Assembly: GCA_016181045.1 (NCBI GenBank) | Contig: JACPAB010000003.1 | Span: 7,652-71,651, forward strand | DNA from: Candidatus Yanofskybacteria bacterium | GTDB taxonomy: Bacteria; Patescibacteriota; Minisyncoccia; 2-02-FULL-40-12; GWA2-44-9 | Reading direction: 5' to 3' | DNA: 64,000 nucleotides | Shown here: positions 1 to 57,867 of the stretch, in pieces | Layout of the letters: each line of letters begins with the position of its first letter | Numbering within the stretch: position 1 is the first letter of the stretch | The notes under the pieces: model-generated | Database searches by the model: none | What the model saw: the letters and a program-made list of their open reading frames with translations, nothing else | What the model was told of the DNA's origin: nothing | Translations under genes and position numbers: made by a program

Positions 1-111
1 ATCCGGGATCTGGCCGTATCGCAGGGAATGATTACGATGCTTCAGGATGCTTACATGAAATTATTGGAAGGTGTGACATCGGTCGAAGAAATAAAAAGAA
101 TCCTGGGGTAG
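1..111 (+). CDS. C-terminal fragment of a second GspE/PilB-family secretion ATPase (starts upstream of the window)
   Basis: Open frame from base 1 to TAG at 109-111. The tail ...QGMITMLQDAYMKLLEGVTSVEEIKRILG parallels the C-terminus of the PilB-like protein at 39704-41452 (QGMITMFQDGILKVLQGVVSLEELLEV). Confidence 0.6.
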   Translation: MRDLAVSQGMITMLQDAYMKLLEGVTSVEEIKRILG

Positions 112-2303: not shown

Positions 2304-3185
2304 GTGCCCAAAGTTGTTCGTATAAGCAGGCCGGACTTAAAGAAGCTCTATCTGAAAGAGTTTCGTGGGTCTTACGAAATAGCAAAGATACTAAATTGTA
2401 GTCCTTCTTTAATTAGAAAAAGGTTGGAAGAATTCGGAATAAAATCCCGGACAGTACAAGAAGCAAAAGCACTAACAAGGCCTCGCTATCCCAGAACTGA
2501 TTTCTCGGGAGACTTAATAGAAAAAGCTTATCTAATTGGCTTTCGCCTCGGAGATCTGTATGCGGTCAAGACTCATCCTAACAGTCCCACAATAAGGGTC
2601 GGGACTAATTCTACAAAAGAGGACCAATTGCTGTTAGTTGAGGGCCTATTCTCAAAATATGGCCACGTAAAAAGAAATGGTCGAGATAAGAATGGTGCTA
2701 TTCACGTTAGGGCATTCGTAAACAACTCTTTTAATTTTCTGGTGCCAAAAGAGGACAAGATCGATAGTTGGATATTAAAAAACAAGGATTACTTTATCGC
2801 ATTTCTCGCTGGCTATGCAGACGCTGAAGGAACTTTTTGTATCTGTGGCGGGGATGGCGTATTCAGTATTAAATCTCAAGATAAGAATACACTTTTTAGT
2901 ATTTGGAAAACCTTAAATCGACTGGGTATACTTTGTAAAAAACCCTCTCTCTTCCGGGTTGCCGGATTCATAGATTACCGTGGAATTAAAAATAATAAAG
3001 ATGCCTATATTTTTACAATATACAGGAAAGATTCTCTTCTAAAACTAATTGACCTTCTTAAACCATATTTGAAACATGGAAAAAGGATTAAAGACATGTT
3101 ATTAGTAGAACAAAATATAAATAACAGAAACATAAAATATAACTTTAAAAAAGATAATCGCTGGCTTAAAACATACAAAACATGA
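2304..3185 (+). CDS. Free-standing LAGLIDADG-family homing-endonuclease-like protein with an N-terminal HTH
   Basis: Two LAGLIDADG-type motifs (YLIGFRLGDLY and FLAGYADAEGTF). GTG start. Its stop overlaps the yebC-like start (ATGA at 3182-3185). Confidence 0.75.
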   Translation: MPKVVRISRPDLKKLYLKEFRGSYEIAKILNCSPSLIRKRLEEFGIKSRTVQEAKALTRPRYPRTDFSGDLIEKAYLIGFRLGDLYAVKTHPNSPTIRVGTNSTKEDQLLLVEGLFSKYGHVKRNGRDKNGAIHVRAFVNNSFNFLVPKEDKIDSWILKNKDYFIAFLAGYADAEGTFCICGGDGVFSIKSQDKNTLFSIWKTLNRLGILCKKPSLFRVAGFIDYRGIKNNKDAYIFTIYRKDSLLKLIDLLKPYLKHGKRIKDMLLVEQNINNRNIKYNFKKDNRWLKTYKT

Positions 3186-3694: not shown

Positions 3695-4161
3695 TAATCT
3701 TAGGAATAGACCCGGGCACTACAAGGATCGGATTCGGGGTTATAGAATCAGCCAAAAACCACCTTACGGTTCTGGATTATGGGATTATTAGCACGCCGGG
3801 AAAAGACAGGTCTTTGGATTACAAACTAATATCCGAAGGCCTCTCTAAACTCATAGCCGCATACAAACCCGAAAGAGCCGGAGTGGAAAAACTGTTCTTT
3901 TCCAAAAACCTGAAGACAGTGATGTCTGTTTCGGAAGCAAGAGGAGTTATAATGCTGACCCTGGCCAATCACGGCATACCTATAATGGAGCCCGCCCCCC
4001 AACAGGTCAAACAGGCCGTGTCTGCCTACGGGAGCGCGGGCAAAGCGCAGGTTGAAAGAATGGTCAGGCTTATCTTGAAAATACAGGGCACTATAAAACC
4101 GGATGACGCAGCTGATGCTTTAGCTATTGCAATTTGTGCAGCAAATAATAATATTTACTAA
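3691..4161 (+). CDS. ruvC: Crossover junction endodeoxyribonuclease RuvC
   Basis: MIILGIDPGTTRIGFGVIE N-terminus and C-terminal DAADALAIAICA motif. Confidence 0.95.
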   Translation: MIILGIDPGTTRIGFGVIESAKNHLTVLDYGIISTPGKDRSLDYKLISEGLSKLIAAYKPERAGVEKLFFSKNLKTVMSVSEARGVIMLTLANHGIPIMEPAPQQVKQAVSAYGSAGKAQVERMVRLILKIQGTIKPDDAADALAIAICAANNNIY

Positions 4162-11441: not shown

Positions 11442-11572
11442 GAAACAAGTTTAAACAAAAACTTCAAGCTATCCAAAACAAAAACGTGCACACACTGTGT
11501 ATAACAGGTGGAGAACTGTTGACAATATTGACAAGCAACGAAAAGTGATTGAAAAAATAAAATTTCCTGCGC

Positions 11573-11601
11573 TTGATTAAAATTGCCTCAGAAGATATAA
11601 T
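11573..11601 (+). promoter_or_regulatory. Sigma70-like promoter of rpmH (TTGATT-17-TATAAT)
   Basis: -35 at 11573-11578 and -10 at 11596-11601. The -10 ends 7 nt before the rpmH ATG and no SD lies between them. Confidence 0.5.
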
Positions 11602-11608
11602 AATTAAT

Positions 11609-11752
11609 ATGCAATCAAAAGCCCTGACATATAGGCCAAAAAGAAAGAAAAGAAAGTCCACCCACGGATTCCTCACTCGGATGAGAACTAAATCCGGCCG
11701 AAAAATCCTGGCCAGGAGACGGAACAAGGGCAGAAAACGGCTAACCGTTTAA
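11609..11752 (+). CDS. rpmH: 50S ribosomal protein L34
   Basis: 47-aa ORF missing from the track: [47 protein letters not shown]. It sits upstream of rnpA, as is usual. Confidence 0.93.
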
Positions 11753-11868
11753 TTTTCAATTTTCAGTTTCCAATTTTCATTGAATGTTTCAATGTATTAA
11801 TTTTCAATTGAAGAATTGAATCATTGTAAATTTATTGGGAATTGATAATTGTAAATTGGAAATTTTTT
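11753..11868. repeat. AT-rich dispersed intergenic repeat (core caattttcattgaat), copy 1
   Basis: Core at 11771-11785. Related copies at 13747-13844 and 46511-46568, each just after a + strand stop codon. Confidence 0.7.
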
Positions 11869-11872
11869 AGTT

Positions 11873-12516: not shown

Positions 12517-13202
12517 TTAGTATTTTTAACGAAATTTTATTCAGGCCTCTTTTCAACATTACCGTATTTTTATACGACATTCTGCCTTGGAATGATTTCG
12601 GTCTGGCAATCATAGTCCTGACCGTTATAATCAAATTTATCTTCCTGCCTTTGACCACAAAGTCGATAAGGTCTCAAAAAAAACTCAGCCAGCTTAATCC
12701 TCAAATCCAGCAGATCAAAGAAAAGTACAAGAACAATCCAAAGGCGCAGTCAGAGGCGACCCTTGCCTTATACCGGGAAAACGGCATCAACCCGTTGTCC
12801 GGTTGTCTTCCTCTGCTGATACAGATTCCCATTCTCATCGGTCTTTACCAGGCATTTATAGTCGGTCTTAAACCGGAAAGCTTGGGTATGTTGTATGGTT
12901 TTGTTAAAAATCCCGGCGCCATAAACCAGACATCTTTTTGGTTCATAGATATCGGCTCGAAGATGCCTGTTCTGGCTATTCTTGCCGGAGGACTGCAGTT
13001 TCTTCAGGCCAAAAAAAGCTCTGCCCAAACCCAAGGGCCCGGCGCTGTTCCGGAGATGAAAGCGCTCAACTCTCAAATGTTGTATTTTTTTCCGATTATG
13101 GTAATAGTTATTGGTTGGAACTTGCCGGCCGGCCTGCTCTTATACTGGCTGACGACAACCGCGTTTTCCATCGTTGAACAGACATATGCGCAAAGGTCAT
13201 GA
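12513..13202 (+). CDS. yidC: Membrane insertase YidC (short form)
   Basis: 229 aa, multi-TM, with YidC/Oxa1 core motifs ([24 protein letters not shown]). Confidence 0.9.
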
Positions 13203-13717
13203 CCAATTTTACCGAACAGAACGGGGACAGGATCAAGGAAGCCGTCAAAAAGATGGCGGGCTTTATGGACACGGAGTGTCAGGTAGAGCTTCGGGAAGAG
13301 CTGGGCCAGGATGGCAGGGTTAGTTTGGTTATTTCCATGTACACTCCCGACAACGCCAGATTTTTGATAGGAAAGAACGGACAGAATCTGAAGGCCCTCG
13401 AACACTTGGTAAGGTCAATGTTCATGAAACCTGCCCGACTACCTGACGGCACTCAGGCGGGCGGGGACAGTAAAGAAGTTGCCGGCATCTCTGTTGATGT
13501 GAATGACTATAAACGCGCAAGGACCTCGTACATAGTGGATATGGCCAAACAGGCCGTCCAGCGTGTAAGGAATACCCAGAAGGCCGAGGTTCTCCTTCCT
13601 ATGTCTGCCTATGAAAGAAGGGTTGTCCACATGGAGCTGGCAGCTTGCCCTGACATTGCCACCGAAAGCGCTGGAGATGAACCCCATAGACGGATAGTAA
13701 TCAAGCCCTATCCATAA
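13199..13717 (+). CDS. jag: Jag-like KH/R3H RNA-binding protein
   Basis: KH-like GKNGQNLKALEHL and an R3H-type C-terminus (YERRVVHMEL...GDEPHRRIVI). Located downstream of yidC. Confidence 0.85.
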   Translation: MTNFTEQNGDRIKEAVKKMAGFMDTECQVELREELGQDGRVSLVISMYTPDNARFLIGKNGQNLKALEHLVRSMFMKPARLPDGTQAGGDSKEVAGISVDVNDYKRARTSYIVDMAKQAVQRVRNTQKAEVLLPMSAYERRVVHMELAACPDIATESAGDEPHRRIVIKPYP

Positions 13718-13746
13718 AAAATTGAGGTTGCAACCTCAATTTTTTA
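13718..13746. terminator. Bidirectional intrinsic terminator
   Basis: Perfect palindrome aaaaattgaggttgcaacctcaattttt. Confidence 0.8.
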
Positions 13747-13844
13747 ATTTACAATTATCAATTTTTCAATTTTCATTGAATGTATCAATTGATCAATTGT
13801 ATCATTGGAGAATTTATTGAAAATTGATGCTTGAAAATTGAAAA
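13747..13844. repeat. AT-rich dispersed intergenic repeat, copy 2
   Basis: Core caattttcattgaat at 13767-13781. Confidence 0.7.
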
Positions 13845-15008
13845 TTAATCCACTGCAATTTTTAAGGCATAGAGTTTGCCGTCTGTTTCGTTGAGTATTA
13901 TCAGAAAATTCTCGGTGCCGGTAAGCATCAGCTGTTTGGCGGATATATTTTTTGCCGGAGAGAACAGAAGCTCCTTTGTGCCATCCATATTTATTTTATA
14001 GATATCCTCGCCCCCCTGGCCGGACCGTCCGACGGCGCAGAAGATGTAGTCGCTGTTTATGCCCCAAGCGCATTTATAAGCGGGAGTAGAGATGTCCAGG
14101 GCCTTAACCGACGAAGACAAGGCGTCCCCGCCCGCCTGAGTGTCGTCAGGCAGTCGGGCGGGTTTTATGAAAAGCATCGGGCGGCCGCTTTCTCTTGTTG
14201 AATAAAGAATCTTTACGCCGCCGGAAGACCAAAGAACATCCACTTTCCCGGGTTCATCGACGAACTTAGTTAAATTCCCGGTCAGGGAGAGAAGATAAAC
14301 ACTATCCCTGCCATCCACCGAGGCCTTAAAAGATATGTATTCTTCCGATGGCCAGGAGAGCTTTATGTCCGCAAGGCGGGTATCGATGACCTTTCTCGGA
14401 GAACTGCCGTCGGGCGAGGAAACATAGATAGCGCCGTCAAGGCCCAGGGACCGAAGATACGCTATGTGCGAACCGTCCGGTGAGAACGCTAATGACCTTA
14501 TGGTTTTTCCAAGGCCCACAACCTTGTTTGTTTGGTAATTGTAATATCTGAAATCCTTGCCGTTGTTCGTGTCAAAAACACTCACCACCTCTTTTTTATT
14601 TGGGGACCAGAGCGTCTCGACAAGATTCGGAAGCGGTTTATCGGAGACGATCCTCTCGTTCATCCCGTACGAAACAGAAGCGCGCTGCGGGCCCTCGCGG
14701 TTTCGTTCGGGATTCATATCTCTCGGACCGGCCTCGAATACCCGGCCGTTGCTTTTGTCGTAATACAGGACGGAGGATTTTTCTTTTGAAAGAGTCGGAG
14801 ATAAAACCGCTCTCTTGCTTAAGGCAGACAGGTTTCCCGAAGAATTTTCGAGATCACTCGGCTGGCTTTCGTCGAATTTTTCCAGGAAGCCACCCCCGAT
14901 ATTAGCCGATTGCCTTGTGAAATCCTTTTGGCTTATCAAATATCCCGCTAAAAAAGCGGCCAACGACAAGGACAGAACAATTAGTACTATTAGAAATTTA
15001 TTATTCAT
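13845..15008 (-). CDS. Membrane-anchored TolB-like beta-propeller (PD40-repeat) protein
   Basis: N-terminal TM helix and PD40-like repeats (LAFSPDGSHIAYL, LWSPNKKEVV, LWSSGGVKILY). Confidence 0.6.
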   Translation of the reverse strand: MNNKFLIVLIVLSLSLAAFLAGYLISQKDFTRQSANIGGGFLEKFDESQPSDLENSSGNLSALSKRAVLSPTLSKEKSSVLYYDKSNGRVFEAGPRDMNPERNREGPQRASVSYGMNERIVSDKPLPNLVETLWSPNKKEVVSVFDTNNGKDFRYYNYQTNKVVGLGKTIRSLAFSPDGSHIAYLRSLGLDGAIYVSSPDGSSPRKVIDTRLADIKLSWPSEEYISFKASVDGRDSVYLLSLTGNLTKFVDEPGKVDVLWSSGGVKILYSTRESGRPMLFIKPARLPDDTQAGGDALSSSVKALDISTPAYKCAWGINSDYIFCAVGRSGQGGEDIYKINMDGTKELLFSPAKNISAKQLMLTGTENFLIILNETDGKLYALKIAVD

Positions 15009-17866: not shown

Positions 17867-18169
17867 CTACTTGTTCAATATGTTGGTTTGATCTTCTTTC
17901 TTAAATATATATTTTTTCGGATTTAGAATGTATGACAGACCATAAGATGCGTAAACCAATAGGGGGACCCCATCTACCCTTACGAATGCCATGGCTAAGA
18001 ATATCGCGGCAACAGGCAGGGCCAAAGCGATAAACAGAAAACCTTTCGTGAACATGAAAAGAAGAAAAAGTATTGCCGCTCCTCCGGCCACCCATAAAAA
18101 TTGCATGAGCGTGAACGGCCCGACAATTTTCACTTCCGTCTCGATAAATTGTGGAATTTGAAAGCGCAT
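17867..18169 (-). CDS. PrgI-family (VirB3-like) small membrane protein
   Basis: MRFQIPQFIETEVKIVGPFTLMQFLWVAGG followed by two TM helices. Start taken at ATG 18169. Confidence 0.7.
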   Translation of the reverse strand: MRFQIPQFIETEVKIVGPFTLMQFLWVAGGAAILFLLFMFTKGFLFIALALPVAAIFLAMAFVRVDGVPLLVYASYGLSYILNPKKYIFKKEDQTNILNK

Positions 18170-18245
18170 ATAACTTAAGTATATCAAATAAACCGCTAAA
18201 AATGGTGCCAGTAGTCAACAGGGTGTCAGATACAGGATACGGGGG

Positions 18246-18274
18246 TTGCAATACCGTTAGCCTTTTGATATATT
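18246..18274 (+). promoter_or_regulatory. Sigma70-like promoter of the TA pair (TTGCAA-17-TATATT)
   Basis: -35 at 18246-18251 and -10 at 18269-18274. The ATG at 18281 is only 6 nt after the -10. Confidence 0.45.
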
Positions 18275-18280
18275 TAACTT

Positions 18281-18496
18281 ATGAAAACTATTTCTATTCC
18301 AAAAACTATGGCAAAAGAAGAGTTGCTTCTCCTGACTCGCAAAGAATACGACCAGCTTTTGGATACTATAAGGAAAATAGAAAAAAAAGCAGAACTAGAC
18401 CCCGACTTACAAGAAGCAATCAAAGAAATTAAAAAGGGCAAACTTATAGGGCCGTTTACTTCTATTAAAGAATTGCGATTGTCTCTGGCAAAATGA
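18281..18496 (+). CDS. Putative type II antitoxin
   Basis: 71-aa ORF overlapping the toxin start by 4 nt (ATGA), which is typical TA architecture. Confidence 0.6.
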   Translation: MKTISIPKTMAKEELLLLTRKEYDQLLDTIRKIEKKAELDPDLQEAIKEIKKGKLIGPFTSIKELRLSLAK

Positions 18497-18738
18497 AAAT
18501 ATTTTATACTCCTAAATTCAAGAGGAGTTTTGATAATTTCCCAAAACATATTAGAGACACGTTCTATAAACAGACAACTCACTTACTAAAAAACATAAGG
18601 CACCCATCTCTTAAAGCCAAGAAATACAGTGAGAAGTTGGATATTTGGCAGGCAAGGATAGATAAGTCTGTCCGGCTTTACTTTTTGATTGAGAAAGACA
18701 GGTACATCTTGCTTGATATTAAAAAACATTCAAAGTAG
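18493..18738 (+). CDS. RelE/ParE-family type II toxin
   Basis: 81 aa with a C-terminal pattern IWQARIDKSVRLYFLIEKDRYILLDIKKH typical of the RelE/ParE fold. Confidence 0.7.
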   Translation: MKIFYTPKFKRSFDNFPKHIRDTFYKQTTHLLKNIRHPSLKAKKYSEKLDIWQARIDKSVRLYFLIEKDRYILLDIKKHSK

Positions 18739-18769
18739 CTCCACTTTTTTGGTTGATTGTGGGAGCGCC

Positions 18770-18882
18770 AGTGAACGGCCCGACAATTTTTACCTCGGTC
18801 TCGATAAATCCCGTACGAAGCAGAGACACGTTGCGGGTCCTCCGGCTTTGTTCGGGATGAATTGTGGGATTTGAAAACGCCT
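18770..18882 (-). pseudogene. Relic duplicate of the prgI 5' end
   Basis: About 60 nt match 18108-18169 (gtgaacggcccgacaatttt...tcgataaa...ttgtgg(a/g)atttgaaa). The start codon has become AGG and a 47-nt hairpin repeat (18810-18856) splits the copy. Confidence 0.7.
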
Positions 18883-18883
18883 T

Positions 18884-19438
18884 TTATTTTTGGTTTCTTA
18901 GGTCGACGACATTTCCGGGGCTGACCGGAGGTTCCTGGTTTCTTAGCGGGGGCGGGATATATTGAGGTGGGCCGGATCTTACGGGGGGTCTATATTGTTG
19001 GGGCGGCTCTAAAGATTTTTGAGGAGATAACCCTTTTTGCATATTTTTGAGATCCCCTATTACTGAAGCGAATAACTCGTTTACAATTTTACTCTGTATT
19101 TGATACGCAACCGCGGAGTCGATTCCCAAATTCTCGGAGATCTTGCCGGCCATCTCGTTTATCGAAATATCGCCAAGAAGGACGTCTCGGATTATTCGGG
19201 TCGCCTCTGCTTTCTGGTCTTTGTTCAGGCCGAAGCTTGGGCCCAAATTTTCTTCGATGAACTCTGCGGTCGAAGGATCCATCAAAATGTTCCTGACGGA
19301 CTCTGGCAGAGCGAGAACTCTGTTTGTATATTCTGTAAAGAAATTCTTGGGCTTGGAACCAAAAAGATCCACGTTGAATGGCGTTGCGTAACTTGAACCT
19401 TCTCCCATGCCTTCTTGTTCGTTTAGAATTTCGTCCAT
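18884..19438 (-). CDS. Hypothetical protein with a proline-rich C-terminus (T4SS-like cluster)
   Basis: 184-aa ORF with no recognisable motif. Called from position and coding-like composition. Confidence 0.5.
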   Translation of the reverse strand: MDEILNEQEGMGEGSSYATPFNVDLFGSKPKNFFTEYTNRVLALPESVRNILMDPSTAEFIEENLGPSFGLNKDQKAEATRIIRDVLLGDISINEMAGKISENLGIDSAVAYQIQSKIVNELFASVIGDLKNMQKGLSPQKSLEPPQQYRPPVRSGPPQYIPPPLRNQEPPVSPGNVVDLRNQK

Positions 19439-24019: not shown

Positions 24020-24829
24020 TTAGCTTGTTGATATTAAGGTTGTCAATTTTAGCCAGCTTTCTACTGATAATTCTTCTGGCCTTGAGTCTGGATTTACCCT
24101 CAATTCATTAAGTATTTCCACAGTTTTTTCTTTTGACGCAAAAATTCTAACCAACGTGTTTTTGAGTTGCTTTCTTTTCCCAGAAAAACCGGCTTTAATT
24201 ATTTTGAAAAACAGGTCTTTGTCTGTCGGCATATCTTTTTTGGGAACAATCCTTATTATCGCCGAATCGACTTTGGGTATCGGTCTAAAACTGCCTTTGG
24301 ATACATAGCCGATGATTGTTGGACTGGAATAAAACTGCACGGATAGTGCAAGCAGGTTCATATGCGGCGGCTTGGCCACGATCCTTTGAGCCACTTCTTT
24401 TTGAACAGTCAGAACTATTAATTTTGGTTTCGGCCATTTTTCAAAAACAGTTCGCAGAAAATTGGACGTAATGTAATAAGGAATATTACCGATTACTTTG
24501 TAATCGCAATTTTCAATTTTCAATTTACAATTTTCAAACAATTTTTTAATATCTAATTTCAAAATGTCTCCTTCAACAATCTTTACATTAGAATTGTGGA
24601 ATTTATCTTTAAGTTCTTCAATAAGCCGGCGGTCCTTTTCTACGGCGATAATCCGCTTCGCTTTTTCGGAAAGTTTCCGCGTTAAATTTCCAGTTCCCGG
24701 GCCTATCTCCACTACCGTATCTTCCGGCCCCACCTCTGCGGTCCCGATGATCTTATCCAAAATACCCTGATTGATCAGGAAATTCTGGCCAAGCGACTTT
24801 TTGGGTTTAATATTTGATAATTTTTTCAT
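24020..24829 (-). CDS. rsmA: 16S rRNA (adenine1518/1519-N6)-dimethyltransferase RsmA/KsgA
   Basis: KKSLGQNFL, VVEIGPGTGNLT and GNIPYYITS motifs. Start trimmed to MKKLSNIK. Confidence 0.92.
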   Translation of the reverse strand: MKKLSNIKPKKSLGQNFLINQGILDKIIGTAEVGPEDTVVEIGPGTGNLTRKLSEKAKRIIAVEKDRRLIEELKDKFHNSNVKIVEGDILKLDIKKLFENCKLKIENCDYKVIGNIPYYITSNFLRTVFEKWPKPKLIVLTVQKEVAQRIVAKPPHMNLLALSVQFYSSPTIIGYVSKGSFRPIPKVDSAIIRIVPKKDMPTDKDLFFKIIKAGFSGKRKQLKNTLVRIFASKEKTVEILNELRVNPDSRPEELSVESWLKLTTLISTS

Positions 24830-26855
24830 CGTCATCTGTGTAAAAGTTTGACATGGATGTTCTGACATCCAAAACATTGCCGGGCATCTCGCCTATGAAT
24901 CTGGAAGGCAGATTCGCTTCGGTAGAACCGAAAATGTGCCGGTATTTGGCATAAGATATGTGAAGTTTCTTTTTTGCCCTGGTTATGGCCACGTAGCAGA
25001 GGCGTCTTTCCTCCTCCAGCTCTTTTGGGTCAATAAGCGACCTTGAATGAGGGAAAAGCCCCTCTTCCATTCCGGCGATGAATACGATCGGGAACTCCAA
25101 ACCTTTTGACGAATGCGCCGTCATTAACACAACCCTGTTGTTGATATTTTTAAGATTGCCTGCCCCGTACCAACCCCGCCCCTTTTCTGAATGGCGGTCA
25201 GCGGAAGAGATTGGTGTGGGGTCGGCGTCTTGTAGCAGAGCTATCTCTTCCAAGAATATAGCAATCCCATCTCCGTTTTTGAGCGAGTCGTGTTTCTTGG
25301 CGACGGTCAGCAGTTCTTTTATGTTCTCTATCCTGTCTTGGACGGTATCGGCGACACCTGATTTTTTAAATGTGTTTAAAAGATAGTCCTCATAGTTGGT
25401 TTTTCGGACTATGTACTTAATAAGTTCGGTAAGCTTTACGGACTTTTTGGAATTTAGATCTTTGAGTAGTTTGGCCAGTTCTTCAAGGCCGGGACCCTGT
25501 CTCGAACCCTTCATTTCCGCAGCCAGTGCCGCTACGGCCGATATAAGATTTGTCTCCTCGGTCTTTACTATTTTTTGAAAAGTGCTCGAGCCGATGCCGC
25601 GTGGCGGCAGGTTGTATATCCTTTCGAAACTCACGACATCGGAAGGGTTCGAGACCACTTTAAGATAGGCCAGCATGTCTTTTATCTCTCTTCTTTCGTA
25701 AAATTTGATGCCCCCGACTATCTGATACGGGAACCCTCTTGTGATCAACGCCTCTTCGATGGCTCTGGATTGGGCATGGGTCCGGTAAAGAATGGCGAAG
25801 TCGTTTATTTTATACCCCTGCGTGGTCAGGTCTTCCATCGTTTCGATTATAAAACCGGCCTCGTCACGTTCGTTCAAGGCCTCCCTGATTAAAATTTTCT
25901 CCCCGTGGTCATTCTCGGTCCAGAGCTCTTTGGGCACCTGGCTTTGGTTATTGGATATGACGTTCTGGGCGGCGGCGAGGATATTCTTGGTGGACCGGTA
26001 ATTCTGTTCCAAAAATATTACTTTGGCATCGGGGTAGTCCTTTTGGAAGTTCAAGATGTTCTTTATGTCGGCGTCGCGGAACATGTAGATACTTTGCGCA
26101 TCATCACCAATGACGAATAGATTCTTATGTTTTTGAGCAAGAAGGGTCACCAGCTGATATTGGTCATGGCTGGTGTCCTGATATTCGTCGACAAGGATAT
26201 ATTTCCAGACGTTTTGATATTTCTCGAGGATGTCCGGGTTTTGTTTAAATATTTTAACGGTTAGAACTATCAAATCGTCAAAGTCCAATCCGTTCATTTT
26301 TTTCAGCTCGGTTTGGTATTTCCCGTAAACTCTCGCCACGACTTTGGAGAAAAAATCATCGGGCTCAAATTTCTCCGGAAAAATAAGATTTGTTTTTAGC
26401 CGCGATATTTTAGCAAGTATTGCCCGGGGGTTGAATTTCTTGGGGTCTATTTCAAGATCACCCATGACCCTCTTGACGACTCCGGTCTGGTCGTCAGAAT
26501 CAAAAATCGTGAAGTTGCTGCCGTAACCGAGAACAGGTATCTCTCTCCTTAATATCCGGAGGCAGATGGAATGGAAAGTGCCCAGCATCGGCGTAGCCGA
26601 TGCAATTTTCAAATTCCGATTTTCAATTTTCAATAAATTATAAACCCTTTCTTTGATCTCGTTGGCGGCCTTATTGGTAAAAGTAATTCCGAGAATTTCA
26701 CAGGGTCTTATTCCTTGAGAAATTAAATAAGCTACCCGATGGGTCAAACAGCGGGTCTTGCCCGAACCCGGTCCTGAAATAACCAAAACAGGCCCCTCAA
26801 TGGCCCTTACCGCTTCAATCTGTTTGTCGTTTAAACCCTGGAAAATATTGTCCAT
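24807..26855 (-). CDS. pcrA: ATP-dependent DNA helicase PcrA/UvrD
   Basis: SF1 motifs GPGSGKT, VDEYQDT and TAHSSKGLEF. Start trimmed to MDNIFQGLNDKQ. Confidence 0.92.
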   Translation of the reverse strand: MDNIFQGLNDKQIEAVRAIEGPVLVISGPGSGKTRCLTHRVAYLISQGIRPCEILGITFTNKAANEIKERVYNLLKIENRNLKIASATPMLGTFHSICLRILRREIPVLGYGSNFTIFDSDDQTGVVKRVMGDLEIDPKKFNPRAILAKISRLKTNLIFPEKFEPDDFFSKVVARVYGKYQTELKKMNGLDFDDLIVLTVKIFKQNPDILEKYQNVWKYILVDEYQDTSHDQYQLVTLLAQKHKNLFVIGDDAQSIYMFRDADIKNILNFQKDYPDAKVIFLEQNYRSTKNILAAAQNVISNNQSQVPKELWTENDHGEKILIREALNERDEAGFIIETMEDLTTQGYKINDFAILYRTHAQSRAIEEALITRGFPYQIVGGIKFYERREIKDMLAYLKVVSNPSDVVSFERIYNLPPRGIGSSTFQKIVKTEETNLISAVAALAAEMKGSRQGPGLEELAKLLKDLNSKKSVKLTELIKYIVRKTNYEDYLLNTFKKSGVADTVQDRIENIKELLTVAKKHDSLKNGDGIAIFLEEIALLQDADPTPISSADRHSEKGRGWYGAGNLKNINNRVVLMTAHSSKGLEFPIVFIAGMEEGLFPHSRSLIDPKELEEERRLCYVAITRAKKKLHISYAKYRHIFGSTEANLPSRFIGEMPGNVLDVRTSMSNFYTDDDEKIIKY
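25163..25222 (+). repeat. 60-nt hairpin repeat inside pcrA (copy a)
   Basis: ccccgtaccaa...ttggtgtgggg. Homologous to 55574-55636. Confidence 0.7.
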
Positions 26856-26980
26856 TAAGCTAAAAATCTCAAGCAGTTGAGATTTTCTTAACGCTTGTGG
26901 ACCCGGCGGTAATCGAAACCGCGTCTCGGCAATGCGAATGCCGTGTATTGCCACTATACGACAGGCCCCAAAATCCAACT

Positions 26981-46510: not shown

Positions 46511-46568
46511 GGAATTATCAATTTTCAATTTACAATTTTCATTGAATTTTCAATGATTCAATTTAAAA
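46511..46568. repeat. AT-rich dispersed intergenic repeat, copy 3
   Basis: Core caattttcattgaat at 46533-46547. Confidence 0.7.
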
Positions 46569-46570
46569 AT

Positions 46571-46642
46571 GGTGCCGTGGCGAAGTGGAAACGCGATCGT
46601 CTGCAAAACGATCATGCATGGGTTCGATTCCCATCGGCACCT
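46571..46642 (+). tRNA. tRNA-Cys(GCA)
   Basis: Hand fold: acceptor GGTGCCG/CGGCACC, anticodon loop CTGCAAA, discriminator U73. Confidence 0.85.
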
Positions 46643-53421: not shown

Positions 53422-53612
53422 AAACATTCTCTCTGACATACCCGCAGGCAAGTCATGAAATGAAAGGCGGACAATAAAGAGTCCGAAATAATAGGTCGAG
53501 CGGTCGCCAAAGGCGACAGGCAAGTGCGGGTTACCTGTTATTTCGGGAACTCTTTCCAGACGCTCTTGAATTGAATGGCGAAGGCGAGGACCGGATGGAA
53601 GAGAGGATGTTT
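53422..53612 (+). ncRNA. Structured ~190-nt element, family copy C1
   Basis: Closing stem aaacattctctct / agagaggatgttt. Internal hairpin gtcgcc-aaa-ggcgac (53503-53517). Conserved blocks are shared with 57647-57867. RNA status is unproven. Confidence 0.5.
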
Positions 53613-55573: not shown

Positions 55574-55636
55574 AACCCCGCACCAAACCCGCCCCCTTTC
55601 TGAATGGCGGTCAGCGGAAAAGATTGGTGCGGGGTT
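55574..55636 (+). repeat. 60-nt hairpin repeat (copy b), intergenic
   Basis: aaccccgcaccaa...ttggtgcggggtt perfect closing stem. Homologous to 25163-25222. Confidence 0.7.
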
Positions 55637-55671
55637 GTTTTATTAAAATATTATCGTTATCATATATATTT

Positions 55672-57646: not shown

Positions 57647-57867
57647 AAAGCGAAGCCCTAACACTTTTTACATCCAGTCCTCGCCTTCGTCACTCACCTT
57701 AAAACGTCTGTAAAGAGCATCTAAAATAACAGGTAACCCTCGCTTGCCTCCAAGCTAAAGCTTGGCGCTCGACCTATTATTTTAGGCCTCTTTATTGTCC
57801 GTCTTTCAGCTCATGACTCGCCTGCGGGTATGTAAAAAGCGTCATGGCCTTCGCTTTAAGTTAACAA
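57647..57867 (-). ncRNA. Structured ~220-nt element, family copy C2 (reverse orientation)
   Basis: Closing stems aaagcgaagcc / ggccttcgcttt and ctttttacat / atgtaaaaag. Internal hairpin ccaagc-taaa-gcttgg (57740-57755). Starts 4 nt after the comM stop. Confidence 0.5.

Follow-up and report, generated by a model that had tools for sequence, protein, structure and literature searches.

A 36-nt palindrome lying in frame in jag and in a TolB-like gene of a Candidatus Yanofskybacteria genome is likely a miniature mobile element

A 64-kb stretch of DNA (hereafter, the window) from a Candidatus Yanofskybacteria metagenome-assembled genome (MAG)—i.e., from an uncultured groundwater bacterium—carries two inverted copies of a palindromic sequence, termed element A, each lying in frame within one of two convergent, unrelated genes: jag, encoding an RNA-binding protein, and a gene for a TolB-like beta-propeller. 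Element A is likely a mobile element of just 36 bp, palindromic and non-autonomous, that resembles the Rickettsia palindromic elements (RPEs) in miniature. It is an insertion, missing from most orthologues of both genes and patchily distributed among relatives; its two window copies occupy a shared target motif, fall in loops of the modelled proteins and leave the reading frame open; and near-identical copies recur at other loci and in other phyla. The features concerned are listed here, with bit scores from covariance model R1.

13199..13717, + strand: host gene 1, jag/khpB, encoding a KH + R3H RNA-binding protein of 172 aa; identified as Jag/KhpB because it holds both domains (Pfam R3H 1.4e-16, KH_KhpA-B 2.2e-6)
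13421..13429, + strand: jag target, 5' half, TTCATGAAA, codons F-M-K; present in empty orthologues and thus older than the insertion
13430..13465, + strand: element A copy 1, CCTGCCCGACTACCTGACGGCACTCAGGCGGGCGGG; its frame reads PARLPDGTQAGG, residues 78-89 of Jag; 59.8 bits
13466..13468, + strand: jag target, 3' half, GAC, codon D
13845..15008, - strand: host gene 2, encoding a membrane-anchored TolB-like beta-propeller of 387 aa; carries element A and a further insert, element B
14124..14126, - strand: TolB-like target, 3' half, GAC, codon D
14127..14162, - strand: element A copy 2, CCCGCCCGACTGCCTGACGACACTCAGGCGGGCGGG; its frame reads PARLPDDTQAGG, residues 283-294 of the TolB-like protein; 62.1 bits
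14163..14171, - strand: TolB-like target, 5' half, TTCATAAAA, codons F-I-K
Peptide spanning the insert: FMKPARLPDGTQAGGDSK

An earlier note on this DNA had described a 42-nt repeat in jag that recurs as its reverse complement in the TolB-like gene, forms an imperfect hairpin and encodes nearly the same peptide in both. These observations were borne out. The 42-mer AAACCTGCCCGACTACCTGACGGCACTCAGGCGGGCGGGGAC (13427-13468, + strand) matches the reverse complement of 14124-14165 at 39/42 positions (3 mismatches), a match found in 0/100 dinucleotide-preserving shuffles; the two copies read as KPARLPDGTQAGGD in jag and KPARLPDDTQAGGD in the TolB-like gene, as stated there; and both fold into a bulged hairpin (-21.9 and -25.1 kcal/mol; z = -3.3 relative to shuffles). 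The length of the repeat needed revision. While the inverted match is even longer than 42 nt (48 nt, 13421-13468 / 14124-14171, 92%), DNA alignments against empty orthologues delimit the inserted unit to exactly 36 nt (13430-13465 and 14127-14162), with unambiguous ends and no duplicated base: filled sites read AAA^CCC...GGG^GAC and empty ones AAA^GAC (^ marking the boundary of the insertion). The unit is 36 rather than 42 nt because the flanking AAA and GAC, like the upstream TTCATR, are already present in empty orthologues, the remainder of the match being pre-existing target. Element A is paired from its first base to its last, and in a 14-pair model 90% of the cells pair. The consensus of the Yanofskybacteria copies and of copies in a foreign yidC gene (see below) is CCCGCCCGACTGCCTGATGGCACTCAGGCGGGCGGG; the loop comes in two variants, TGGCAC and CGGCAG. 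Covariance model R1 detected only the two listed copies in the window, both intragenic, 655 nt apart and inverted, and no further ones there or in 107 kb of related loci.

Both window proteins are 100% identical to annotated proteins of the Candidatus Yanofskybacteria MAG, HYT67_01145 (Jag) and HYT67_01150 (TolB-like). Read sets SRR12113384 and SRR12113430 contain this organism as well, and the related loci L003 and L018 stem from sample ERZ27284378. The TolB-like protein comprises an N-terminal helix followed by a beta-propeller (AlphaFold2 mean predicted local distance difference test score, pLDDT, 81), with TolB among the best PDB matches. The majority of orthologues of either gene have no element A, Jag orthologues lacking it being 158-160 aa and TolB-like orthologues typically ~356 aa long. 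The nearest Jag orthologues (160 aa, 86-88% identical) read FMK^DNKEVAG where the window protein reads FMK[PARLPDGTQAGG]DSKEVAG, and the empty jag DNA of the related locus L002 is TTCCTGAAA^GAC. Likewise, 19/21 TolB-like orthologues show the empty site MLFVK^D, as compared to MLFIK[PARLPDDTQAGG]D in the window; the empty sites follow the family pattern F(V/I)K^D, with the DNA reading TTCGTAAAA^GAC in L017 and TTTGTAAAA^GAC in L018. Including a tRNA locus described below, empty/filled site pairs are available at three places, namely jag, the TolB-like gene and the T-loop of tRNA-Arg(UCG). Because the closest orthologues show such clean empty sites, the alignments support element A being an insertion and not an ancestral part of either protein. 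The orthologue comparison proposed in the earlier note thus came out in favor of insertion, the peptide not being ancestral in either family. A conserved or convergent protein motif, or an artefact of assembly or sequencing, has next to no probability left as an account of the repeat: most orthologues of both families are without the peptide, the likeness holds at the DNA level, synonymous positions included, and assemblies made independently (NCBI, ENA, Logan, JGI) have element A, with point variants, at these same sites. The orthologue comparisons and independent copies already refute it.

Both empty window sites carry the asymmetric 12-mer TTYRTRAAA^GAY in the same codon phase, F-x-K^D. This resemblance is not a matter of chance, because no more than ~8 of the 128,000 window positions match the motif with 2 mismatches or fewer, which puts the chance of a second random site resembling the first at ~6e-5. 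The same peptide would appear in both window genes because insertion is orientation-specific with respect to a shared motif that stands in a shared codon phase. The earlier note was right that both genes read the same element strand in the same frame; its suggestion that orientation or frame is constrained holds in part. Frame 1 is used at three/three independent protein-gene loci (jag, TolB-like, yidC), for which the chance among four open frames is ~1/16, three loci being too few to decide whether just frame 1 is tolerated; for the two window genes, the shared target is the simpler explanation of common frame and orientation. We count four open frames in the consensus because two of the six, frame 3 and reverse frame 2, are closed by TGA in every copy; reverse frame 1 holds a TAG in the window jag copy. 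Over all loci, element A is sense-oriented at 4/4 (jag, TolB-like, yidC, tRNA).

The 12-residue peptide, PARLPD(G/D)TQAGG, is polar and Pro/Gly-rich (grand average of hydropathy, GRAVY, -0.77). In the AlphaFold2 model of Jag, the insert forms coil that directly follows the KH helix (59-75) and precedes the R3H strand 94, with pLDDT < 50 at residues 85-90; in that of the TolB-like protein, it occupies a loop directly after strand 276-283, with pLDDT < 50 at residues 290-298. The structural modelling suggested in the earlier note hence places both inserts in coil, and both are predicted to lie in low-confidence, i.e. disordered, surface loops. With the frame being open, plain translation of the 12 residues would be the default reading.

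Among Yanofskybacteria, jag is filled in the window, L003 and L004, and the TolB-like gene in the window and L002; the latter locus combines a filled TolB-like gene with an empty neighbouring jag. Neighbour-joining trees place the three filled jag alleles in three clades and the two filled TolB-like alleles in two, each with empty sisters. The copies are more alike than the genes that harbor them: between the window and L002, the TolB-like element is identical at 34/36 positions and the gene at 80%, and between the window and L003, the jag element is identical at 33/36 positions and the gene at 72%, i.e. element identities of 92-94% against host-gene identities of 72-80%. Third-codon-position divergence within the element was below the host rate in 3/4 pairs (P = 0.036, 0.032, 0.0025), and the TolB-like copy of L002 equals the jag copy of L003 at 36/36 positions. 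These comparisons make element A either younger than its hosts or subject to stronger constraint. Similarity is raised little, if at all, in the 150-nt flanks, which do not clearly exceed the remainder of the gene; spread of filled alleles by homologous recombination was rejected on this ground. The jag copy of L004 stands apart, with 4 changes relative to the consensus and 7 relative to the window jag copy, three inner-stem pairs lost and the frame kept. It has diverged as far as its host gene (80.6% vs 80.0%), and such decay with the frame kept would be the behavior of a tolerated selfish insert.

From this pattern we infer recurrent site-specific insertion, not repeated precise loss. An unlikely reading, albeit one to which we allow some weight, is that each gene received a single ancient insertion that was precisely excised several times, with conservation reflecting selection on DNA or RNA instead of youth and recent mobility being unneeded. 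For the TolB-like gene, parsimony is nearly tied at 3 losses vs 2 gains; the L004 copy, as diverged as its gene, fits an old insertion; and distant jag lineages have degenerate 8-21-residue (P/S)AR...GG inserts in the same linker (P0013, P0020, P0021, P0027, P0041, P0042), which could be old decayed copies. However, with no direct repeats on either side, excising exactly 36 nt would still require an enzyme, and a 27-nt insert at the jag site of L028 is only weakly similar to element A in its DNA. The stem shows no covariation, i.e. no compensatory changes that would indicate structural selection. Moreover, vertical descent cannot give 36/36 identity between jag and TolB-like copies of different genomes and 35/36 identity to another phylum.

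Local copying between the convergent window genes, by template switching or by microhomology-mediated gene conversion with the inverted 12-mers (TTCATRAAAGAC) 655 nt apart as anchors, would do without a transposase. It would account for the sole two copies in 64 kb being inverted close neighbors, it could draw on the shared flanks that pre-existed at both sites, and it agrees with position 18, which is C in both window copies but T in L002, L003 and L005. Yet L002 has a TolB-like copy next to an empty jag, the window copies differ at 3/36 positions while copies in different genomes are identical, and the yidC and tRNA copies in other phyla are left unexplained. In addition, 655 nt is long for quasi-palindrome template switching. 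We regard this route as improbable and retain recurrent insertion of a mobile element A.

Outside Yanofskybacteria, a location-blind scan of 241 million JGI metagenome contigs, whose pattern was blind to the CAGTCAGG variant, gave one true match, L005. There, and in L025, a 35/36 copy lies in the same reading frame (frame 1) in yidC of an unrelated Gram-negative-type bacterium, within a low-complexity linker following the first transmembrane segment (TM1) of a 563-aa YidC with a periplasmic domain. The gene order in this organism is yidD-yidC-jag-mnmE-mnmG-rsmG-parAB, with rnpA upstream of yidD on L005/L026. In the L025 yidC (3821-3896, identical to L005), the 36-mer is flanked by GC-rich arms CCCGCCTGCC...GGCGGGCAGG, and the element may be nested in a second hairpin. 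Other GC-rich hairpins with element A-like stems (CCCGCCTGCC...GGCGGGCAGG; CCCCGCCCTCTA..CTGCCTGA..TAGAGGGCGGGG) occur in L030 (9593-9624), L024 (66-92) and L002 (12546-12588), the last of these being intergenic, just upstream of rnpA.

Searching 1.84 billion representative proteins with a 16-column profile yielded two matches at E <= 0.001, both of them spurious open reading frames (ORFs) over a tRNA region of Ignavibacteriales; single-copy exact matches score near the cut-off of this search, which is accordingly no census. The DNA is attributed to Ignavibacteriales because the neighbouring genes fall in 90% clusters with MBI3112308-10. In these sequences, element variants (2-4 mismatches, 32-34/36) lie between TTC and AAAT in the T-loop of tRNA-Arg(UCG)-like sequences. 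The T-loop is filled in L021 and L023, whereas L030, a related NCBI MAG, has an intact tRNA with an empty T-loop and no element copy in 23 kb. ARAGORN missed the filled tRNA, and called tRNA-Arg(tcg) once the 36 nt were deleted in silico. The filled tRNA-Arg(UCG)-like sequence of L021 and L023 has acceptor-stem mismatches, and the copies of L024 lie in 3' fragments. A tRNA intron of the bulge-helix-bulge or group I type was dismissed, with the junctions at the helix foot, 36 nt too short for a ribozyme core and no Rfam match; a tRNA fragment, CRISPR repeat, terminator or intron was ruled out for element A more generally, there being no T-run, no array and no bulge-helix-bulge. The spacer between tRNA-Arg(ACG) and tRNA-Arg(UCG) in Ignavibacteriales is full of repeated units (L021 3040-3400, L024 240-600, L030 9150-9800), each consisting of two hairpins and a tRNA 3' fragment (T-arm, acceptor strand) and mis-translated as ORFs P0188 and P0189. 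These tRNA-like units had no match in Rfam; repeated integrations may have left them behind, or they may constitute a small structured RNA.

With sequence identities of 89-100%, element A is common to at least three deep lineages. A GTDB genome scan with CCTGACGNCACTCAGGCGGGCGG returned one chance match, in a TPR protein, using a pattern that misses the consensus variant GATGGCAC and is therefore no evidence of absence. A reading that joins these findings would have element A spread across phyla by exchange between episymbiotic Patescibacteria and co-occurring, possibly host, bacteria (e.g., Ignavibacteriales) and, in addition, home to short motifs or loops, invariably in sense orientation and strongly preferring tRNA T-loops as well as the rnpA-yidC-jag (KhpB) operon. 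We hold this combination to be doubtful. If true, such targeted cross-phylum spread would point to an unrecognised insertion mechanism, possibly transcription- or RNA-coupled or KhpB-linked, and element A could mark DNA flow between symbiont and host.

The same loci also bear on a functional role for the sequence itself. A cis-element, i.e. a binding site in RNA or DNA with Jag/KhpB as one candidate binder, might have been co-opted by the rnpA-yidD-yidC-jag operon and by a tRNA, with selection keeping it in place. In line with this idea, 3/4 independent loci lie in or beside that operon (the yidC copy being the sole match of the location-blind scan of 241 million contigs, at a rough chance of a few in a thousand), all four are sense-oriented, and the element is better conserved than its host genes. 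Against it stand the variable presence among close relatives, a stem that shows no covariation and is decaying in the L004 and window jag copies, the absence of a match for element A in Rfam, and the mismatched acceptor stems of L021/L023 and the 3' fragments of L024, given which the insert looks disruptive in the tRNA. We deem a selected cis-element highly improbable.

As a mobile element, element A would insert as a precise 36-bp block without duplicating its target. In Yanofskybacteria, it would have entered the same two sites repeatedly and in a fixed orientation relative to TTYRTRAAA^GAY, whose phase (F-x-K^D) would place the hairpin in the same frame and thereby add the same 12 residues. 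The insertions would survive by virtue of a length that is a multiple of three, a stop-free frame and a polar, Pro/Gly-rich peptide accommodated in disordered loops or linkers. Element A also moves between genomes: co-occurring, unrelated bacteria from groundwater have near-identical copies in yidC and in the T-loop of a tRNA. A trans-acting enzyme presumably moves it. Single-strand HUH transposition would be expected to leave no target-site duplication, and with its hairpin and lack of duplication, element A suggests an HUH/Y1-type activity; against this activity speak the single hairpin, the lack of a fixed short target and the presence of both orientations within 1 kb.

Several points weigh against a mobile element that enters specific sites. 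Given the near tie in parsimony, recurrent gain is not separable from an ancestral gain followed by precise losses. Seven near-matching target sites in the window are unoccupied, so that the motif is not sufficient, and it is absent at the yidC (..GCGA^GGC) and T-loop (TTC^GAA) sites; with 5' flanks of AAA^ (jag, TolB-like), TTC^ (T-loop) and CGA^ (yidC), there is no single target. No transposase or related autonomous element was found in the 64-kb window, for which the 25 commonest of 113 Pfam families were listed. Copies were likewise missing from IMG/VR, INPHARED phages and PLSDB plasmids, which thus point to no vector. The two window copies are oppositely oriented although seemingly on one replichore, on the same side of the presumed oriC (between dnaA and rnpA). 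The sample is also small: insertion is seen at ~six independent loci, and 64 kb contain just two of the copies.

Element A is not the only small insert in this region. Element B, a 54-nt in-frame insert of 18 aa (MNPERNREGPQRASVSYG) in the same TolB-like gene (14664-14717, - strand), is shared only with P0122/L018. It has a ~49-nt core, 12-nt terminal inverted repeats (CCCGAACGAAAC / GTTTCGTACGGG) and a 5-nt ATGAA target duplication and, on these sequence hallmarks, looks like a classical miniature inverted-repeat transposable element (MITE) of very small size; its region has pLDDT < 50 at residues 99-115. A 5' fragment of a PrgI-like gene, present as a duplicate, carries a diverged element B copy at 18810-18856 (- strand). 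In two TolB-like orthologues, L018 (P0122) and P0131, a further position of the gene holds a third insert (NPRTQGAEQSSYDG; 42 nt, AACCCGCGAACACAGGGAGCGGAGCAGTCGTCGTATGACGGC), and small inserts appear to have hit this gene repeatedly. Element D is a ~60-nt palindrome (ACCCCGCACCAA...TTGGTGCGGGGT; -31 kcal/mol) with an intergenic copy at ~55575-55637, upstream of a DksA/TraR-type zinc-finger ORF, and a second copy at 25163-25222 (92% identical) in frame in the UvrD/PcrA helicase ORF 24807-26978 (- strand; ...DADPTPISSADRHSEKGRGWYGAGN...). At least three small GC-rich palindrome families (A, B and D) thus colonise coding sequence, with in-frame copies in one 64-kb stretch; as elements B and D are also intragenic and in frame in the same window, the genome holds several palindrome families, which favors the mobile-element reading of element A.

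Further repeats and cassettes were seen in and near the window. Two unrelated proteins of other Yanofskybacteria, P0085 (Jag) and P0147 (TolB-like), have a common N-terminal extension, M(D/N)PVRGLARD(L/K)VASPKDLGGATSNG (see also P0104), which points to another repeat upstream of genes that is translated by gene callers. AT-rich intergenic repeats of the type AATTTTCAATTTTCA occur at 11442-11872, 13739-13848, 24508-24566, 26604-26662 and 46513-46571, including the dnaA-rnpA spacer (likely oriC) and the jag/TolB-like spacer. In the region 17867-18900, a small cassette of two opposite-strand genes (18281-18496, 18493-18738) resembles a toxin-antitoxin pair in size and arrangement, the only features considered. 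It is flanked by an intact PrgI-like gene (17867-18187, - strand) and by the duplicated, frameshifted 5' end of that gene (~18770-18875). Inverted repeats of ~130 nt (53436-53562, 57705-57833; 82-89% identical) bracket a 4.1-kb segment with an unknown 509-aa ORF, the DksA/TraR zinc-finger ORF and a ComM/Mg-chelatase-like ATPase, a stretch that they may delimit as a mobile or invertible unit. A free-standing ORF at 2304-3185 (+ strand), adjoining a nucleotidyltransferase gene, has weak matches to LAGLIDADG homing endonucleases.

Among known systems, the RPEs, reviewed in PMC10969869, come closest in kind; R. bellii alone has 526 of them, with 53 in protein genes and one in the gene for transfer-messenger RNA (tmRNA) (PMC1458961). 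Like these, element A is a palindromic hairpin repeat found in frame in unrelated protein genes and occasionally in a structural RNA gene, keeps the frame next to empty orthologues, is compatible with the protein fold by its loop location and varies in presence, which places it in an RPE-like functional class. RPEs are known only from Rickettsia, with a length of ~100-150 bp and tens to hundreds of copies in a genome, in contrast to the 36 bp and 2 copies/64 kb of element A, which hits the same nucleotide position in different lineages and whose copies in Patescibacteria, Ignavibacteriales and another bacterium are 89-100% identical. Membership in RPE-1..10 proper was rejected on size (36 bp) and hosts (Patescibacteria, Ignavibacteriales), these and not a sequence comparison setting element A apart.

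Bacterial repeats of similar size differ in other respects. The repetitive extragenic palindromic (REP) sequences and REPINs are, like element A, imperfect palindromes of 20-40 nt; REPs, which are mobilised by REP-associated tyrosine transposases (RAYTs; HUH Y1), are extragenic and high-copy and have a conserved GTAG head, and a REP assignment was discarded for an intragenic, low-copy element without GTAG. The ends of IS200/IS605 elements form two different hairpins, insert 3' of a fixed 4-5-mer and show lagging-strand bias. Because of its opposite orientations on one apparent replichore, element A does not fit lagging-strand-specific insertion of this type, and an IS200/IS605-type palindrome-associated element was rejected for a single 36-nt hairpin present in both orientations 655 nt apart. 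No RAYT, TnpA or Y1 transposase was seen among the 25 commonest of 113 Pfam families in the 64-kb window (53 ORFs), which holds one Phage_integrase-family ORF. MITEs (Correia, ERIC, BOX, Nezha etc.) sometimes form in-frame fusions with host ORFs (PMC10969869). They share with element A its small size, non-autonomy and palindromic nature, whereas their terminal inverted repeats come with target-site duplications; a classical MITE was excluded for element A, no base being duplicated at its boundaries, and no cognate autonomous insertion sequence was seen in the 64-kb window.

A full-text literature search returned no description of such elements in Patescibacteria. The GC clusters, 'byp' and double-hairpin elements of fungal mitochondria are ~30-55-nt GC-rich palindromic mobile inserts inside protein and RNA genes of an AT-richer genome; being organellar, they differ from element A, which resides in bacterial chromosomes and leaves the frame open, and ribosomes bypass some of these inserts instead of translating them. 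As a minimal hairpin, element A offers a tractable system in which to study mobilisation. It also introduces variation into loops and linkers of proteins that are conserved otherwise, and it is a caveat for the annotation and phylogenetics of proteins and tRNAs of the Candidate Phyla Radiation (CPR). Records of palindromic selfish DNA lying in frame in protein genes come mainly from Rickettsia and fungal mitochondria, and element A suggests the same process to operate in the reduced genomes of the CPR.

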